A DNA stretch of 64,000 nucleotides from Myxococcales bacterium (GTDB lineage: Bacteria; Myxococcota_A; UBA9042; JABWCM01; BTVJ01): the NCBI GenBank assembly GCA_045863395.1, contig BTVJ01000001.1, forward strand, positions 288,001 through 352,000, read 5' to 3'. The position numbers and the translations under genes are program-made. Numbering within the stretch: position 1 is the first letter of the stretch; each line of letters begins with the position of its first letter. Below are positions 18,584-27,818 of this stretch, one piece after another. The notes under the pieces are model-generated. The model worked only from the letters and a program-made list of their open reading frames with translations. It was not told where the DNA came from and did not search any database.

Positions 18584-19262
18584 CGCCCGCATCCCGCCCG
18601 TCGTGGAGCTGGTCTCCGTCACCAAGCAGCTCGGCCACGGGGCGCAGGCCGTCGTCGTGCTGCGCGGCGCCTCGCTGGCCATCGCCGAGGGGACGACCGC
18701 GGCCGTCCGCGGCCCGAGCGGCAGCGGCAAGACCACGCTCCTCTTGCTGATGGCGGGCCTGGACCAGCCGACGGAGGGGAGCGTGCGCTTCCGCGGGGAG
18801 GCCATCGAGGCCTGGTCGGAGGACCAGCGCAGCGCGTGGCGGCGGGGGCGCGTGGGCTTCGTGTTCCAGGACTTCCGGCTGCTGCCGCGGCTGACCGCCC
18901 TGGAGAACGTCGCCCTGCCGCTGGAGCTGCTCGGCCGGAGCCCGCGGGAGGCGCGGGCGCGGGCGACAGAGCTGCTCGGCGGCCTCGGCCTCGCGAGACG
19001 CCTCGACCACCTGCCGGCGGCGCTCTCCGGCGGGGAGCAGCAGCGCACGGCCATCGCGCGCGCCTTCGCCCACGAGCCCGACGTGGTGTTCGCCGACGAG
19101 CCCACGGGCAACCTGGACCCACGCACGGCGGGTGAGGTGCTCGACCAGCTCCTCGCCACCGTCGCGGCCCACGGCACTACGCTCGTGACGGTCACCCACG
19201 ATGAGGAGGTCGCCGGCCGCATGCAGCGCCAGATCCGCATCGTGGACGGCCGCATCGCGTAG
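18573..19262 (+). CDS. ybbA: ABC transporter ATP-binding protein (YbbA/LolD-like)
   Basis: GPSGSGKTT, LSGGEQQR, FADEPTGNLD, VTHD; follows tesA; TTG start is inferred. Confidence 0.85.
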   Translation: MSLDARIPPVVELVSVTKQLGHGAQAVVVLRGASLAIAEGTTAAVRGPSGSGKTTLLLLMAGLDQPTEGSVRFRGEAIEAWSEDQRSAWRRGRVGFVFQDFRLLPRLTALENVALPLELLGRSPREARARATELLGGLGLARRLDHLPAALSGGEQQRTAIARAFAHEPDVVFADEPTGNLDPRTAGEVLDQLLATVAAHGTTLVTVTHDEEVAGRMQRQIRIVDGRIA

Positions 19263-19327
19263 CGGGCCGACGCCCGAGCCGGCGCCGCCTCGCCCTCCCA
19301 CCCGGGGTCAGCGCGCCGCGCGGCCCA
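19095..19327 (+). repeat. 233-bp exact direct repeat, copy 1 (3' end of ybbA, spacer and GT2 stop region)
   Basis: Base-by-base identity with 26377-26609 (offset 7282). Confidence 0.95.
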
Positions 19328-19664
19328 GGGTGCGGCGCAGGGCCAGGACCTGCTGGAGGTTGGCGAGGATCGTCCGGGCGTTGCGCACCTTGGACTGGCC
19401 GCCGAGGCGCGGGCGCAGCTCCGTCGGCTCGTTGACCCACCGGTGGCCGCCGCGGTCGGCCTTGAGGATCAGCTCCATGAGCACGGTCCAGCCGCGCCCT
19501 CCCACGGTGCGATGGTCGATGGTGTCGAGGAGGGGCCACCGGAACATCAGCGCGCCCTGGAGCACGGCGCACGCCTCCCGAACAACCGCCTCCAGGCATC
19601 AAACCTCGTTTCTGGCCGGGATCCGCGCCGATACGCTCAGCGCCGCCTCCTCTCAACACTGCGC
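19308..19664 (-). pseudogene. Internally deleted, diverged copy of the GT2 gene at 26590-27312
   Basis: Aligns to both ends of GT2 with about 370 bp missing; GTG start changed to GCG. Confidence 0.85.
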
Positions 19665-19678
19665 GCGGCCCTCCTCCG

Positions 19679-20067
19679 TCAGTGCGTCGCGCCGCGCTCC
19701 GCCAGCGCGTGCGACAGAAACAGCAGCCCCGTGGCGTGGACGACCCGCTCGATGCGGATCTCCTGCAGCACGTGCGCGCGCTGGGCATCCGAGAAGGTTG
19801 CGACCGTGGCGCGGAGCTGCGCCAGCTCGCTGCCACCGGCCTCCATCACGGCCTCGGCCCAGCCCAGCGCCGCCGCCACCCCGGTGGAGCGGCCGGCCGC
19901 CTGACCATGGATCGCCCCCTCCGCGGCCGCCGCGTCGATTCCCGCCATGGGGGCCAACTTCGGGAACAGCGCCCGGCACACGGGGCACCCGAGCAGCCTC
20001 GACATGCGCAGGAAGAAGGCGACGCGTCGCTGCCTCGACGCGCCCCTCCCCTACGAAGCCCCTCAGG
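19679..20067 (-). pseudogene. 5'-truncated, frameshifted copy of the AhpD-like gene at 27327-27818
   Basis: LLGCPVCRALFPKLAPMAGIDAAAAE retained; 2-bp deletion near 20025; 5' end absent. Confidence 0.85.
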
Positions 20068-20424
20068 TCCACGCCCGGGACGTTGCCCGCGCCGAAGATG
20101 ACCGGGATATCGTTGTCGACGGCGGCACTCTGAACTTCGGACCAGTTCGCGGTGACCTCAGGCGCCGGTGCATAACAACCCGATTCATCGAGGGTCACGA
20201 TGCGCCCCGCTGGCAGTCTGGTGAGCCCGCAGGCACGGCTTTGTCCTTCCAACCGTCCGATCTCCGGCGCCCAGGCCGCGGGCTGAGACGCCCCGGGTCC
20301 CGGCGTCCGGACAGACCACGCGAACGCCGCCCCGGACTCCCACACCGTCACGCACTCCGTCCTCTTGGGAGATGCGAAGGGTGCCGACCTGAGCACCGCG
20401 TGTCAGGCCCCCGCCTGCCCCGCC
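20066..20424. pseudogene. Two fragments of the 3' end of the beta-helix lipoprotein gene (29471-30958), the second one inverted
   Basis: 20066-20159 matches about 29581-29674 in the same orientation; about 20244-20424 matches the reverse complement of about 29675-29857. Confidence 0.8.
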
Positions 20425-20620
20425 AAGGCGCCCGTGCACAACAACCTGTGCCATTCGGGCCACGCTGCATCCCGACTGGTAGCCTGGCGAGGCATCGGGG
20501 AGCCGTCACGCGGACGTGGAAGCGCGGACGCGGGACGCGGGGACGCAGCATGGCGGGGCTGCCGAGCCTGGACCAGGCGGCTCCGCCAGCCCTGGCCGTC
20601 GCAGTCGCACCAGATCCCCG

Positions 20621-20719
20621 GGCCAGGACGAGTGTCGCGCCTGGACGATCAAGCGCAGCAGTCGCGCACAGGACGTCGCCGGCAAGATCCACAGCGACAT
20701 CGCGCGAGGCTTCATCCGA
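20621..20719 (+). pseudogene. ychF: Fragment of the ychF C-terminal (TGS) coding region
   Basis: Translates as [33 protein letters not shown], matching the conserved YchF E.RAWTI..G..A..AAGKIHSD..RGFIRAE motif. Confidence 0.75.
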
Positions 20720-20882: not shown

Positions 20883-20929
20883 TCCAGACCGTCGACAGTC
20901 CAAACTCCCCCAGATTGAAGGAGGCATCC

Positions 20930-23168
20930 ATGTCCCCCCCCCCCCCCCGCCCTGCGCGTCTGGATAGGTCCAGCCGTAGTGCTCATCGTCGTGGCCAACT
21001 GGAGTGACAAGACCCGTGCGAGTGAGCCCAAGTGGACCGAGGTCGAGTCGACAGAAGTCACGCCGGCCGCAAAGGGCGCTGTCGTCGAAGTGGCCCTGAC
21101 TCGTGTCGCCGATGTCGCACAGAAGCTCACCGTAACGGCGCGGGCCAGCACCGGATGGACGTGCAAGGTCGGTGCTGGCGTTGAGGCGCTGGGGACCACC
21201 ACCAAGATTGACGCCATTGCTGGCGCGCCGATCCCGACCCTGATGGTATCACTCGAGCCAACCAACCCGGATGAGAACTTCGACAAGCCGTTCGTCGTCG
21301 TAGACCTGGTCGTCGAGGATGACGCACGCGACCAACGGACCTCCGTGAACCGAATCTTCCTGGTCGACAAGAGTGGCGTGCTCTCGACCACGAGCTACAA
21401 TGCTTATCTGGCAGGGCTGAGCGCAGGAACTGCGGGCGCTTACGCCATCGTGACGCCCGGCTTTTGGGGGCTGGCGCGACAGGAGCTCCAGAACGTCCCC
21501 CCGTGGGAGAATCCGGAGCTGCCAAAGGGCGACTGGGAGCAGCACGCGACGGGTACCGGAAAGCCGAGCGTGGAGACTGCGGCCGTCAGCTCCGCCCTGA
21601 CACAGGGATCCGCGAACGAGTCGACTTCGGGAGCGAGGGACGCGGGCGATGCGATGGGCTGCGCCGCGTCGGGCGGTTCTTCCGGCGGCACCATCCCCTT
21701 CGCCCTTCTCCTCCTCGGCTTGACGTGGAGCTGCCGGAGGCCGCGCCGATTGACAGGCCTCGCACCGGTCATGACGGCCATGCTGATCACGGGAGTGCTC
21801 GGCGGAGCACGAACAGCCCGGGCATCGAGCTGCTACTACTACGGCTACCTCACATTCTGGGATTCGAGAGGCTCGAACTTGCGAGTCGACGAGGCGGGCA
21901 ACCGCCTGGGCGCCTGCGAACCCGCGTTCACATCCTGCAACAGCTTCACACCAGGCTGTTGCTTCGCCGGTATCCCGAACGTCACGATTCACTTGCACAA
22001 GGACAGCCTCAATCCGAACAACATCGTGGCCACCAGCCAGACGGGCAACACCGGGTACTTCCTGCTGGAAGACGCGAACTGCAACCCTTCGGGGGTGCAC
22101 TATCTCAGCGTGGAGTATAGCCGCACCGGCTCACCTGCGACGCAGATCATCACGACAAGTCAATATGGATCGACCGCCTATCGGACGGCGCTCGGAACCC
22201 CGCTCACCGGAACAGCGACGTGGAACTACCTGCCAAACGTGTCCGTGAACAACGCCAACGACACGAACTCATCCACTGGAAATGTAGCGACTACTTGGGC
22301 GACCAGCTACCTGACGTTCAAGTCCCTCGACGCCGAGGGCGAGACACGATACCGCCGCTCCTACGGCAGCAGCAATACCTACGACCTCGTGTTGATGAGG
22401 AACTACCAAGTACCAAAGTCGCAGGCTCTCTGCGGCAGCGAAACCATAGAGATCGACGTTGGTGACGAACGTACCGACACGCCGTCTCATGAGTTCGGAC
22501 ACTCGTTGCACGGGCGCGTGGTCGGCTGCAACGGCGCTCAGCCTGCGTTCCCCGCCGGAGCGTCGAGTTGGGACTGGTCTGGCGGGTCTGAGGGACGAGC
22601 GATCAAGGAGGCGGTGGGAAGCCTCGTGGCGCAGCTCGCGTTCTGGGACCCTTCGACAACGGAGATCCCATCTTTCACGTCCCGGTACCCGTGCTGGGAC
22701 ATGAGCTGGAACACCAATGCCAACGACGCGTCCGTCTCCCGAAACGTCTGGTACGGGCTGTGGGAATATATCGACACCAGCACCAACAATGCGGACAGCT
22801 TCGCTGACTACGTTGACCTGACCCTGAAGGATCTTTTTGATGCCATGGTGCTGTGGCAAGCGTCTCCGGCGCAGAACGGGGTGAACCGGTCATCCGCCGA
22901 GTGGTTCTATACGGCGACAGCGCAGTCCTGCGCTTCCCATCAGGCCTGCTGCGACTACTCCGGCTGCCCCTACCCGGGATCCGTGTGCGAGAACGGCGTT
23001 TGCCAGATTGGCGACCCGCATGGAAACAACGTTCGCGATTGGGTATACTGGATGGCGGTGCAGCAGGGGGCCGGCGAGACGAACTATGCAAGAACGCTCC
23101 CTTCGTCGCCGTGTCTCGGCGTCGAGGACAACACGTGGCCCTTCAACGGCGGCTTCCGGCTTGACTAG
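20930..23168 (+). CDS. Secreted multidomain protein with internal MYXO-CTERM, second signal peptide and HExxH zinc metallopeptidase domain; frameshifted at the poly-C tract (in-frame GTG at 20979)
   Basis: 729-aa open frame from 20979; [29 protein letters not shown] at 22488-22502 followed by EGRAIKEA. Confidence 0.75.
20934..20948 (+). repeat. C15 homopolymer just after the start codon (putative slipped-strand switch)
   Basis: ATG-T-C15; C14 would join ATG 20930 in frame to the long ORF. Confidence 0.8.
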
Positions 23169-23177
23169 GCATCCGCA

Positions 23178-24482
23178 ATGATCGGTCACGATAGGCAGTG
23201 CCTCCTGCACTCTGCCATCATGCTTGTCGCACTTGCTGGATGCGGCGCGTGCGCTGACGCCAGGGGGCCATCGGGTCCCCCAGCATCGTCGCCCTCGGAC
23301 GTCTCACGCGCCAATCTGGACGACGCCCTCTTGCATGATGCTCCCGGCGCTGAGGCAGCAGCATGCTTCACCAATTGTCTGAATCGGACGTGCGGCGACG
23401 ACGGTTGCGGTGGGATCTGCGGGGCCTGCGCGCCGGGGCAGGCATGTCACGGCGGGGCCTGCGCCTGCGAGCCTCGGTGCAGGAAGGACGACGGGAGGTG
23501 CGGGATCGACGGGTGTGGCGGATACTGCCAATGCGCTCCGGGGCGAATCTGCGACGAGGTGGCGGGGGCGTGCCTGGAGCCCGCCGCGTCGTGCAAGGCG
23601 GGCTTCTGTATCATCCCCGCGGGGAGCTTCATCATGGGAGGCCTCGGAGTCGAGGCACCGAAGAACGAGATCCCGCGGCACCCCGTGATCTTGACGCGGT
23701 CCTACGAGATACAGCAGACCGAGACCACCCAGGCGCTCTGGATGGAGGTGACGGACACGGACGTGAACCCGTCGATCTTCGCCGCCTGTGGGCCCGACTG
23801 CCCGGTGACGAATCTGACGTTCTTCGACGCGCTCCTCTTCGCGAACGCGATGAGCGCGAAGGCGGGGCTGCCGCCGTGCTACGAGTTGGTGGAGTGCCAG
23901 GAGCTGTTCGAGGGGTTCGGCGCGGAGTGCGAGGCCGCCCAGTTCGCCGGCCCGGATTGTCCCGGCTACAGACTGCCGTCGGAGGCTGAATGGGAGATGG
24001 CCGCGCGCGCCGGGTCCCACACGTGCTTCCCCGACGGGCAGGATCAGACGGGACCGTGGAGCTGCCACCCGAAGGAGCCGCTGGTCGAGACGGGGTGGTT
24101 CTGTGCCAACAGCGACGTCTCCTTTGCGGGCTGCGTGACGTGCGTCGACGCGCACCCGTCCGCGTTCTGGAACACTTGCTGCGGGCCTCACCCGGTCGCC
24201 GGAAAGGCGCCGAACGCCTATGGGCTGTTCGACACGAGCGGGAACGTCGGGGAGATCACCGGAACGGTCTTCGAGGAGACCGGGCCAAGCGATCTCGAAG
24301 TGGACCCTGGATTCTCTGAACCGTTCAGGGCGGGGCAGACCTTCTCTCTCCGTGGAGGATCGTTCGCATGGGGCAACACCGGTTGCTGCTCGACTACGCG
24401 CCTGGCCATCGGCATGAACTATCAGTCGATCGCGGCCGGTGTTGTCGGTATCCGGCTCGCGCGCACATTGGACCTGCCATGA
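23178..24482 (+). CDS. Formylglycine-generating enzyme (SUMF1/FGE-sulfatase) domain lipoprotein with Cys-rich N-terminal repeats
   Basis: LAGC lipobox; CGDDGCGGICG; IPAGSFIMG, YRLPSEAEWEMAARAG, NAYGLFDTSGNV.E, RGGSF, GIRLAR. Confidence 0.88.
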   Translation: MIGHDRQCLLHSAIMLVALAGCGACADARGPSGPPASSPSDVSRANLDDALLHDAPGAEAAACFTNCLNRTCGDDGCGGICGACAPGQACHGGACACEPRCRKDDGRCGIDGCGGYCQCAPGRICDEVAGACLEPAASCKAGFCIIPAGSFIMGGLGVEAPKNEIPRHPVILTRSYEIQQTETTQALWMEVTDTDVNPSIFAACGPDCPVTNLTFFDALLFANAMSAKAGLPPCYELVECQELFEGFGAECEAAQFAGPDCPGYRLPSEAEWEMAARAGSHTCFPDGQDQTGPWSCHPKEPLVETGWFCANSDVSFAGCVTCVDAHPSAFWNTCCGPHPVAGKAPNAYGLFDTSGNVGEITGTVFEETGPSDLEVDPGFSEPFRAGQTFSLRGGSFAWGNTGCCSTTRLAIGMNYQSIAAGVVGIRLARTLDLP

Positions 24483-24496
24483 GGGAGGCCGCGGAT

Positions 24497-26278
24497 ATGA
24501 CGAATGTCGACCTGCCCTTCTTACAACGGCTCCGCCCGGTCATTATTGCGTGGGGGATGGCGGTCCTCTGTGCCGGATGCACGACTCAGTCGGGGCACGC
24601 TGTCGCGCCGGCCCCGCAGGTGACCTCAGTGCTCGGCGCAATGAGCGTGGACCCGAGCTGTGTGGTCGTGATCGAAATCGGCACGAACGCGAAGGATAGC
24701 AAGCTCGGGGCAGCGCTGGCGGCGGGCCGGGACGTCGATGGCGACGGAGTCGCGGACATCGTCGCCGGGGCACCGGGGGCAGAGAGCCTCCACGGCGGAA
24801 TCGCGTTGCTTCTTGGCTGGGGCCCCGACGGAGCCCCGTCGTCGACCTGGCTTGGCGGCGACGAGCTGGACCTCGGATACCCGAGCGGCTATGGACACGG
24901 CGTCGCCCTCGGAGACTTCGATGGGGACGGGTACGCCGACGCGGCCGTGGGGGCGCCGTTTCACTCCGGCGGGGCCAAGAAGGGCTCCCTTGTGGTCCAT
25001 GCCGGAGGCCCGACGGGTCTCTCCGCCACGCCGTCCATGGTGATCAGCGGGGGCGCCATTGGGATTGGAGGCTCGATGGCCGGCGCCGATGTCAATGGAG
25101 ACGGCTTCGACGATCTGGTCGTGTCGGGATCGGGGGACGACCCCATCGCGCACGCTTCGCTCTACCTCGGAGCGGCCGGCGGCCTCAGCGCGAAGCCCTC
25201 ATGGACCTATCTCGGAGGCGCAGTGAACTCCATCCTCGACATCGCGGTGGCTGGGGTGGGCGACGTCAACCACGATGGCTACGACGACGTGGCGGTCGTC
25301 ATGGCACACGGTCGAGCGAAGCTGTTTCTCGGCACGAGCGATGGCCTGGAGGCAGAGCCTGCCTGGGAGGACTCATCGGCAGCCCCCTTCGAGCTGTCTG
25401 TCGCTGCGGCCGGAGATGTGGACGGCGACGGGGTGGCGGATGTGCTGGTCGGCAACCGGCGCTTCGAGGGTCCACCCGGGGAGGGATCAAGAACCACGAA
25501 CGCGGTCGGCCGCGTCGCGCTCTACCGAGGGACCCCAGCGGGCCTCGAGCAGGAGCCTTTCTGGACGTATGTCGGGACCGTGGAAGACGAAGAACTCGGC
25601 ACCTCCGTGGGGGCAGCGGGGGACTTCAACGGGGACGGCTACGGCGACTTCCTCGTCGGGGCCCCGAGGTACGACGTCGACGATCCGGGCCAACCGCAGG
25701 AGGGGCGCGTGCTGCTCTTCCTCGGTGGACCGGACGGACCTGGCACGGCGCCTGCCGTCGTGGTGGAGGGCAACGCCTGGGTGGCCAAACTGGGTGAGAC
25801 GGTCGCCGCGGCGGACGTCGATGGTGACGGACGGAGCGACATCATTGCCGGAGCTCCCGGGGCATTCTTCGGTCGGGGAGCGCTCTACGTGGCGACCGCT
25901 GCCGCCATCGACTCCTGCAACACGAGTGTCGGAGACGGCAACGTGGAGACAGGGGATGGTGAGGGAGCGGACGCCAGCGGGGACTCCGGCGTCATGCCGG
26001 GCGAAGACGCCATCGACGCTTCCATCGACGGCGACGCCACCAACACCCTGGACGGGGACGGCGGAGCGATGGGGCCCCTCGATGCGGTTGTCGCGGAAGA
26101 CTCCGGGCGGGTCCGTGACCACACTCCAGCCGGCGATGACGAGCCACAAAGCTCCGGCGCCGCATCGGGGGGCTGCGGCGGCTGTTCGGCGAGCGGGGCG
26201 ACGGAGCCGGGCTGGCTCTGGCTCGCAGCCCTCCTGCTCCTGCTACGGATGCGTCGTCGCCCCGCACGCTCGGTCTGA
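24497..26278 (+). CDS. FG-GAP (integrin alpha-like) repeat protein with C-terminal MYXO-CTERM
   Basis: Repeated GDVDGDGxxDxxVGAP units; GGCGGCSASG..WLWLAALLLLLRMRRR; GGGAGG RBS (alternative start 24479). Confidence 0.88.
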   Translation: MTNVDLPFLQRLRPVIIAWGMAVLCAGCTTQSGHAVAPAPQVTSVLGAMSVDPSCVVVIEIGTNAKDSKLGAALAAGRDVDGDGVADIVAGAPGAESLHGGIALLLGWGPDGAPSSTWLGGDELDLGYPSGYGHGVALGDFDGDGYADAAVGAPFHSGGAKKGSLVVHAGGPTGLSATPSMVISGGAIGIGGSMAGADVNGDGFDDLVVSGSGDDPIAHASLYLGAAGGLSAKPSWTYLGGAVNSILDIAVAGVGDVNHDGYDDVAVVMAHGRAKLFLGTSDGLEAEPAWEDSSAAPFELSVAAAGDVDGDGVADVLVGNRRFEGPPGEGSRTTNAVGRVALYRGTPAGLEQEPFWTYVGTVEDEELGTSVGAAGDFNGDGYGDFLVGAPRYDVDDPGQPQEGRVLLFLGGPDGPGTAPAVVVEGNAWVAKLGETVAAADVDGDGRSDIIAGAPGAFFGRGALYVATAAAIDSCNTSVGDGNVETGDGEGADASGDSGVMPGEDAIDASIDGDATNTLDGDGGAMGPLDAVVAEDSGRVRDHTPAGDDEPQSSGAASGGCGGCSASGATEPGWLWLAALLLLLRMRRRPARSV

Positions 26279-26376: not shown

Positions 26377-26609
26377 GACGAGCCCACGGGCAACCTGGAC
26401 CCACGCACGGCGGGTGAGGTGCTCGACCAGCTCCTCGCCACCGTCGCGGCCCACGGCACTACGCTCGTGACGGTCACCCACGATGAGGAGGTCGCCGGCC
26501 GCATGCAGCGCCAGATCCGCATCGTGGACGGCCGCATCGCGTAGCGGGCCGACGCCCGAGCCGGCGCCGCCTCGCCCTCCCACCCGGGGTCAGCGCGCCG
26601 CGCGGCCCA
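26377..26609 (+). repeat. 233-bp exact direct repeat, copy 2 (orphan ybbA 3' fragment 26377-26544)
   Basis: Identical to 19095-19327; begins mid-gene at DEPTGNLD. Confidence 0.95.
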
Positions 26610-27312
26610 TGGTGCGGCGCAGGGCCAGGACCTGCTGGAGGTTGGCGAGGACCGTGCGGACGTTACGCACCTTGGACTGGCCGCCCAGGCGCGGGCGCAG
26701 CTCCGTCGGCTCGTTGACCCACCGGTGGCCACCGCGGTCGGCCTTGAGGATCAGCTCCATCAGCACGGTCCAGCCGCGGCCCCCTTGGGTGCGGAGCTCC
26801 ACGGTGTCGAAGAGGGCGCGCCGGAACATCAGCGCACCTTGGAACCGGGGGAAGGTGCCGAACAGCACCCGAAAGAGGAGCCGCTCTGCGGCTGACAGGG
26901 CTTTGGCGAGGAGCGGTGCAGGCCGGTCGGGCAGATAGCCGAGGACCAGGTCCGCCTCGGCCATGCGCGGCAGGAAGCGTTCGATCACGGCGGGGGAGAT
27001 CTCGCCATCGGCGGGCAGGAAGATCACGCACTCACAGCGCGCCTCGCGGAAGCCGGTCTGGTAGACCGCGCCGAGGCCCTGGTTCGGGGCGTGATGGACG
27101 GCGCGAACGCCGAGGAGCTCGCCCGCGAGGCGGTCCGCCAGGGGTCCCGTCCCGTCGGTGCTCCCATCGTCGATGATCACGACCTCCCACGCCGGAGCGC
27201 AGCGCAGAAGGACGGCGCACGCCTCCCGGACGACCGGCTCCAGGCCCGTGACCTCGTTGTAGGCCATGATCAGCGCCGACACGCTGGGCGTCGCCACTTC
27301 GCCGCTCTGCAC
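26590..27312 (-). CDS. Glycosyltransferase family 2 (DPM1-like)
   Basis: IMAYNE, IIDDGSTDGT, HAPNQGLG, PADGE; GAGGAGG RBS before GTG. Confidence 0.9.
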   Translation of the reverse strand: MQSGEVATPSVSALIMAYNEVTGLEPVVREACAVLLRCAPAWEVVIIDDGSTDGTGPLADRLAGELLGVRAVHHAPNQGLGAVYQTGFREARCECVIFLPADGEISPAVIERFLPRMAEADLVLGYLPDRPAPLLAKALSAAERLLFRVLFGTFPRFQGALMFRRALFDTVELRTQGGRGWTVLMELILKADRGGHRWVNEPTELRPRLGGQSKVRNVRTVLANLQQVLALRRTMGRAAR

Positions 27313-27326
27313 GCGGGCCTCCTCGG

Positions 27327-27818
27327 TCAGTGCGTCGCGGCGCGCTCCACCATCGCGCGCGGCAGGAAGAGCAGGCCCGTGGCGTGGACGACGCGCTCGA
27401 TGCGGATCGCCTGCAGCAGGTGCGCGCGCTGGGCGTCCGAGAGGGCAGCGGCCGCGGTGGGGACCTGCGCCGGCTCGTCGCCGCCGGCCTCCATCACGGC
27501 CTCGGCCCAGGCCAGCGCCGCCGCGGCTTCGGCGGGGAGGCCGGCCGCCTCTCCGTGGATCGCCCGCTCCGCGGCCGCCGCGTCGATGCCCGCCATGGGC
27601 GCGAGCTTCGGGAACAGCGCCCGGCACACGGGGCAGCCGAGCAGCTTCGACATGCGCAGGAAGAAGGCGACGCGCGTCGCCGGCTCGACGCGGCCCTCCC
27701 CCACGAAGCCCCCCAGGAACTCGGGGAGCCCCCGCACCGCGCGCGGCCCTTGTGCGGCGGCCTCACGGGCGAGGAAGGAGAGGGTGTAGGGTCCCGGGAG
27801 CTGGTCTGTGTTCGTCAT
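27327..27818 (-). CDS. AhpD/carboxymuconolactone decarboxylase-like protein
   Basis: Helical protein with GCPVC and AAALAWAEA; AGGAG RBS. Confidence 0.6.
   Translation of the reverse strand: MTNTDQLPGPYTLSFLAREAAAQGPRAVRGLPEFLGGFVGEGRVEPATRVAFFLRMSKLLGCPVCRALFPKLAPMAGIDAAAAERAIHGEAAGLPAEAAAALAWAEAVMEAGGDEPAQVPTAAAALSDAQRAHLLQAIRIERVVHATGLLFLPRAMVERAATH

Follow-up and report, generated by a model that had tools for sequence, protein, structure and literature searches.

We propose that a single bacterial reading frame in the window (here, the whole 64,000-nucleotide stretch of DNA analyzed, from the 8.77-Mb, 71% G+C genome of a Myxococcales bacterium, G000) encodes two exported proteins and is likely switched by a repeat; taken as a whole, we judge this best explanation fairly likely. 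The long ORF (20979-23168, forward strand, as are all features given here for the window without a strand) runs stop-free throughout for 729 amino acids from a GTG. It contains, as a first-pass annotation of this DNA had claimed, Gly-Cys (residues 227-228, 21657-21662), RRPRR (residues 253-257), and Ala-Arg-Ala (residues 280-282, ending at 21824), with one hydrophobic stretch between the first two and another between the last two, followed by the metalloprotease motifs HEFGH (residues 504-508, 22488-22502) and EGRAIKE (residues 538-544). An N-terminal part of about 212 amino acids (21021-21656), comprising a predicted Ig-like beta domain, a conserved PPW(E/D)NP segment (21498-21515), and a low-complexity linker, precedes an internal MYXO-CTERM-like tag (21657-21749) and a second Sec-type signal (21750-21824). 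The remaining 447 amino acids (21825-23168) form a Cys-rich C part with the predicted fold of a thermolysin/M36-type gluzincin, and the conserved next gene (23178-24482) encodes a predicted Cys-rich lipoprotein with an FGE-sulfatase-like domain (Pfam PF03781, E 7e-28).

The start at 20930 given in the first-pass annotation did not hold for the assembled sequence, where this ATG is offset in frame by one base relative to the long ORF, separated from it by 15 C, and opens a frame that closes after 25 codons. A good ribosome-binding site, GGAGG, nevertheless lies five bases upstream of this ATG (site and start codon together, 20917-20932), and the run of 15 C (C15, 20934-20948), a candidate phase variation tract, stands directly behind it. 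Since the hydrophobic stretch after C15, read in the ORF frame, runs into the GTG-started protein, the true start is most likely 20930, out of frame in this assembly; judging from the signal peptides of paralogues, 20949-21020 would encode the remainder of a first signal peptide ending in T-R-A. G+C content in the protease region is 58 to 66%, versus 70 to 75% in the flanks. The locus is bracketed by a direct duplication (19095-20067 and 26377-27717; 95% over 467 bases, 84% over 522), and just upstream a short piece of ychF from its 3′ part (20619-20718), which may mark an integration site, shares 88% identity with a copy on contig C83. Two related short inverted elements, REP- or MITE-like, at 20156-20252 and 20419-20493 recur on more than 10 contigs, and an FG-GAP repeat protein with an ordinary terminal MYXO-CTERM (24368-26278) was not seen beside other family members.

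Three paralogues in the same genome, each a single frame with the same layout, share 32 to 38% identity with the window protein. A class-level genome search (E 1e-5) gave matches in 13 of 107 genomes, three of them tag-only, and a phylum sample, with two candidates scored per genome, gave matches in 8 of 401 genomes, all inside the same class. Metagenome contigs contributed nine family loci, and a single-sequence query of a 5.8-billion protein set retrieved 21 proteins; profiles A1 and A3 recovered only the window protein from that set, and narrow-pattern scans of genome contigs and of viral contigs gave no match. The core alignment holds 29 near-full-length sequences at about 30% identity, including one identical pair and one group at 80 to 85%. 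Fragments (L007/L020, L010, L016, L022, L023, L032, P0008, and P0022) were kept out of it or counted once, and duplicates (P0024, L015, L005, and L036, under protein ids) were dropped or counted once. Two broken copies retain the lipoprotein gene: L032:1381-2013 (reverse strand), where an in-frame internal deletion leaves 211 amino acids, and L007/L020, where an apparent insertion element takes the place of the 5′ part. P0012 (755 amino acids) and P0027 (776 amino acids), from one cluster, were rejected as off and on alleles because start-calling differences explain them equally well. L011, L038-L040, and L042 match through the tag alone, belong to other families, and were excluded from the counts; among these, L011:553-2454 (reverse strand) is an unrelated hairpin ORF joining a matrixin-like protease to an OmpA-domain protein, and L038 is another, a tandem of two homologous units.

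The hinge between the two parts is a hydrophobic-basic-hydrophobic hairpin, found in one reading frame in 26 of the 29 family sequences. Gly-Cys or Ala-Cys stands at a fixed distance from the helix in 24 of the 29 rows, that is, 24 of the 26 hairpin members, and Gly227 is at least 90% conserved. A-x-A occupies columns 280 to 282 in 20 of the 29 rows (10 of 13 in a smaller set), its middle residue varying freely, and the sole other column with at least 10 A-x-A rows is a helix position. By hydropathy and motif conservation, the segment has the features of an internal Sec/signal peptidase I signal, namely, a basic n-region, a hydrophobic h-region, and small residues at −3 and −1. The internal segment singled out in the first-pass annotation is thus a conserved feature beyond chance, and homologues encoded as two separate genes, which that annotation had associated with a chance fusion, were not seen among the near-full-length sequences, none of the 29 rows being divided at the hinge. 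Three of the 29 (P0020, P0023, and L008) have no hairpin and link the N part to the C part directly; P0020 retains its zinc site.

Assignment of the hinge to MYXO-CTERM held for two paralogues and fell short for the window segment. In a six-frame TIGR03901 search of the genome, with 150 of 287 candidates scored, the window tag reached 14.6 bits against a cut-off of 20 bits, which two paralogues passed (C31, 24.6 bits; C48, 22.0 bits); the third paralogue, the fourth copy of the gene, was not among the matches listed. That list was headed by 30 rows above the cut-off. A whole-protein NCBIfam scan gave no MYXO-CTERM match for the window protein, and TIGR03901 at E 0.1 matched only 5 of the 29 members. 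The first helix is also short. The arrangement nonetheless resembles MYXO-CTERM/myxosortase sorting (TraA, MrtX; MrtP, NF040674; preprint 10.1101/2023.06.07.544157) in its Cys signature, hydrophobic helix (best 12-residue Kyte-Doolittle mean 2.08 in the window protein and 2.3 to 3.3 in the other 25 hairpin members), Arg cluster, and cognate sortase, and the genome encodes a myxosortase MrtP (NF040674, 314 bits, cut-off 250). Unlike an ordinary MYXO-CTERM, the window tag is trailed by 472 residues instead of a stop, and thus is not near the C terminus, and its Arg cluster would double as the n-region of the second signal.

Internal MYXO-CTERM motifs are rare, and MXAN_5598 of Myxococcus xanthus, described as a likely gene fusion, has an N part that has been proposed to be processed and surface anchored (Guo, Haft and Wall, mBio 2025, PMC11980579). 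The same paper reports a myxosortase working in E. coli and models outward transport of MYXO-CTERM proteins. The window protein is like MXAN_5598 in carrying the motif mid-ORF, a layout shared by an ORF on contig C58 of the same genome; unlike in the window protein, the C part of MXAN_5598 is an outer membrane barrel with an OmpA domain. For MXAN_5598, the portions of PMC11980579 available to us are silent on phase variation and on a second signal peptide, and they mention neither release of an enzyme nor conservation as a family. The earlier statement that this architecture is undescribed must therefore be narrowed: an internal MYXO-CTERM with proposed processing is published, and the second signal peptide goes unmentioned in that available account. 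Neither "internal" nor "polyprotein" was found in the accessible text of preprint 10.1101/2023.06.07.544157. Hairpins of this kind are not special to the protease family, since they join unrelated pairs in four other ORFs of the genome: C58 (3-5918, reverse strand), where an internal MYXO-CTERM and second signal stand before a TraB-like barrel, and C57 (4128-6842), C18 (5756-9946), and C167 (2397-5318), all on the reverse strand, where the internal MYXO-CTERM precedes lipobox-type signals. A possible further ORF with an internal MYXO-CTERM and second signal lies on C29 near 56621 (forward strand). A bacterial polyprotein of another type is the FbcH cytochrome b-c1 precursor of Bradyrhizobium japonicum, said to be cleaved at an internal site that resembles a signal peptide; unlike the window protein, FbcH belongs to a respiratory membrane complex and has one cut and no sorting tag or lipid anchor. 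Searches for bacterial polyproteins with an internal signal peptide, for fbcH, for mycolysin, and for a thermolysin propeptide acting in trans found no relevant paper, with few subscription papers covered.

We envisage the following series of events. With the tract in frame, the first signal peptide would export the N part through Sec; the first helix of the hairpin would then stop transfer, placing the Arg cluster in the cytoplasm as an n-region, and the second helix would restart export. A signal peptidase I cut after Ala282 would free the protease, and an MrtP cut at a lipidated Cys228 would leave the N part anchored, to be sent to the surface like other MYXO-CTERM proteins. Export, re-export, both cuts, and anchoring are together likely to proceed in this way. 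Signal peptidase I might alternatively act alone, freeing the protease and leaving the N part in the inner membrane on its hairpin, with myxosortase inactive on the internal tag, as the weak score of the window tag and the 2 of 26 hairpin members that have lost the Cys and keep the A-x-A would allow; in the available portions of PMC11980579, moreover, myxosortase action on an internal tag is a proposal. Conservation of Gly227, together with retention of Gly-Cys or Ala-Cys in the great majority of hairpin members at a constant helix distance, argues against this possibility, which we regard as quite improbable.

The C part gave a confident model (AlphaFold2, residues 283 to 729, 17 sequences; pLDDT 89, pTM 0.90), and a full-length model from four sequences (pLDDT 35) was set aside. 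Compared with 48,161 solved chains, the model matched thermolysin best (5a3y; Z 14.3, rmsd 4.6, 253 aligned), then an M36 protease without its propeptide (7qp3; Z 13.8, rmsd 4.9, 283 aligned) and LasB (Z 13.2), with M1 aminopeptidases at about 10. Identity to thermolysin, M36, and LasB is 8 to 12%; Pfam gave no match for the window protein (P0001) and none to M4/M36 or their propeptide models among 15 members, and a PDB sequence search returned nothing significant. The C part is thus M4/M36-like yet no member of these families by sequence, and we predict from the model that it is a gluzincin with a thermolysin/M36 fold. A mycolysin (M5) relationship is a weaker structural lead (ESM Atlas TM 0.59 to 0.61 to clusters carrying PF27283, under the naming bar). 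In thermolysin (M4), LasB elastase (M4), and fungalysin (M36), the N-terminal region of about 200 residues is a propeptide. The window protein resembles these enzymes in its gluzincin fold, its HExxH with a downstream Glu, and a region of similar length before the enzyme; unlike them, it has 16 cysteines in the C part, an Ig-like N region, and a membrane hairpin replacing the autocleavage site.

Alignments of the model begin at its residues 5, 7, and 9, opposite residues 4, 1, and 1 of the thermolysin, LasB, and M36 chains, respectively. Because the C part aligns from the first residues of the mature enzymes, the hairpin, with its predicted signal peptidase site, sits where a propeptide is removed. 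This position bears on whether the protein is cut at all. It might remain an uncut inner membrane protein with two helices and both domains periplasmic, or the C part might be made from an internal start codon, and 4 of 13 loci, including that of the window, do have an in-frame start with a ribosome-binding-like word ahead of the second signal. Nine of the 13 have no such start, however, and Arg codons alone yield GGAGG; in addition, the A-x-A is fixed at one column beside the mature-enzyme start, and the second helix is short and signal-like. We consider this reading very unlikely. The proposal in the first-pass annotation that one ORF yields two products was upheld in its layout, through the conserved hairpin and A-x-A, the encoded myxosortase, the unsplit homologues, and a predicted cut site matching the mature thermolysin-type start, and its two cuts remain predictions. 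What speaks against our preferred explanation at the hinge is the weak window tag, the short first helix, the Cys lost in two hairpin members, and the internal starts.

Glu544 (codon 22608-22610) goes together with HExxH: all 23 members that have the motif carry it, and all 6 that lack the motif lack it too. This covariation fits a third zinc ligand. The gluzincin-like character noted in the first-pass annotation is accordingly supported for the window protein by its motifs, by Glu544, and by the modeled fold, and does not extend to every homologue: HExxH and the third Glu are lost in 6 of the 29 (L008, L009, L036, P0019, P0023, and P0025), so the label "protease" fails for the family as a whole. 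These six retain the cysteines, the GDPHG motif, and, where the DNA was seen, the lipoprotein neighbor. They may be pseudo-proteases, and the survival of everything but the catalytic site suggests that part of the family functions in binding.

Whether the N part serves the enzyme is a more tentative matter. Its position, its constant linkage to the C part, and the three directly linked variants suggest a pro-region acting in trans, a role to which we give a little less than an even chance. Every full-length member seen has both the N part and the C part, the three hairpin-less ones included, and no stand-alone N part was seen among the near-full-length sequences retrieved. Pfam gave no match of the N part to known propeptide families, and its structural matches are weak (ESM Atlas TM 0.46 to 0.55 to FixG_C and NPCBM-associated Ig folds). 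An Ig-like N part outside the propeptide families, like the loss of zinc ligands in some members, counts against our explanation. It would fit instead with two independent products, both cuts occurring, that were fused once and are only coexpressed, the N part being an adhesin-like surface protein. The N part also diverges fast (mean identity 20% versus 32 to 39% for the C part; its tree is weak), and hairpins link unrelated pairs elsewhere. The unbroken association of the two parts in these members, with or without a hairpin, speaks against independence, and we regard this alternative as unlikely.

Of 18 loci tested, 16 have a lipoprotein homologue immediately downstream, and the two without it share one identical sequence; in two further loci the lipoprotein neighbor was recognized by eye. 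Several of the protease/lipoprotein gene junctions overlap or almost touch. No similarity was found between the protease and the FGE-fold lipoprotein, and a search for literature linking the FGE domain to immunity in myxobacteria, covering few subscription papers, found nothing relevant. The lipoprotein belongs to the unit as a third product, which the first-pass annotation had overlooked, and tether, inhibitor, and immunity-like partner are guesses at its role. As the last step of the scheme, the N part would act as a pro-region in trans (as folding aid, inhibitor, or tether) with the lipoprotein as third partner; this step is conceivable, and we lean slightly against it.

Right behind the ribosome-binding site and start, all four copies in the genome carry a non-triplet repeat, each with another unit: C15 in the window (out of frame), (GA)n (in frame), an 8-base unit (out of frame), and, in the fourth copy (C20), an imperfect, different 8-base unit (out of frame, with a possible upstream in-frame ATG). 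Four other loci have (GTCT)n, in frame in L018 (7 units) and L006 and out of frame in L021 (5 units) and L019 (10 units); the L018, L006, and L021 proteins are 80 to 83% identical, and their GTCT copy number differs and sets the frame. Six full-length loci (L005, L008, L009, L015, L017, and L036) have no repeat. The repeat is thus present in 8 of 14 family loci with 5′ DNA, and it is out of frame in 5 of these 8, close to the two-thirds that random lengths would give. The four copies from this genome form one supported clade on the C-part tree and the GTCT loci fall in another, indicating that repeats arose several times. We therefore think it very likely, reading from the sequences, that slippage of the repeat behind its start codon switches the gene on and off. 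The first-pass annotation had noted neither the frame offset nor the repeats that paralogues carry at this position.

The C15 length could be an assembly error, and the window copy could more generally be dead or misassembled, its tract reflecting either an error in sequencing or assembly or an inactivating mutation that became fixed, with no switch involved. Homopolymers are error prone, and broken members of the family are known (the IS-interrupted L007/L020 and the internally deleted L032). Against this stand the 739 intact codons behind C15, with a GC3 of 0.75 to 0.8, and the 2-, 4-, and 8-base units that seven other loci carry at this position, some in frame and some out. Under strict thresholds, perfect non-triplet tracts inside contigs of the genome number only 16, three of them in this protease family; under looser thresholds, 9 of 23 tracts begin at most 16 bases after a start, versus 193 of 2,000 random positions (P 1.7e-4, with a crude start definition). 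A dead or misassembled copy accordingly seems improbable to us. Other predicted secreted-protein genes of this genome with a repeat after the start, some in frame and others out of frame, lie at C128:3630-3644, C95:21945-21956, C165:4314-4347, C166:5105-5134, and C4:134521-134542; C115:20172-20186 is a G15 tract, in frame, and its paralogue, C67:25233-25243, has G11. Two subtilase-like secreted proteins (motifs judged by eye) are among the repeat genes, out of frame. In Neisseria, opa is a contingency gene with a CTCTT repeat in the region coding for its signal peptide. The family is like opa in encoding an exported protein whose 5′ coding region contains a non-triplet repeat, with frames mixed among relatives; unlike opa, it belongs to an environmental Myxococcota-type lineage and uses five repeat units, and switching here is read from sequence. 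Searches for phase variation, contingency loci, or homopolymeric tracts in Myxococcota found no relevant paper, with few subscription papers covered.

A more far-reaching version of our proposal is that what was the pro-region of a protease is now a lipoprotein sorted on its own. Two housekeeping enzymes, myxosortase and signal peptidase I, would then cut one chain to give a surface-anchored pro-partner and its protease in a 1:1 ratio, which would reassemble on the cell surface with the FGE-fold lipoprotein; independently evolved repeats would switch the four paralogues at random, and the catalytically dead versions would be recognition modules. We put this forward as a speculation that is doubtful in its entirety.

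To our knowledge, bacterial polyproteins cut by the normal export machinery have rarely been described. This study adds a conserved, unnamed family with a predicted thermolysin fold, in which the hairpin stands at the predicted boundary between pro-region and mature enzyme, some members lack it and are natural controls, a lipoprotein is a constant partner, and a candidate frame switch evolved repeatedly. Annotation hides such candidate repeat-switched genes, since gene callers place the start beyond the repeat and so omit the signal peptide. With the same two domains joined through a hairpin in most members and directly in a few, the family is a clean test case and would reveal if a "C-terminal" sorting tag can operate within a chain and hand over to a second signal peptide. 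More broadly, the tracts behind start codons in this genome suggest that an environmental, predator-type lineage has a small number of secreted proteins switched by repeats.
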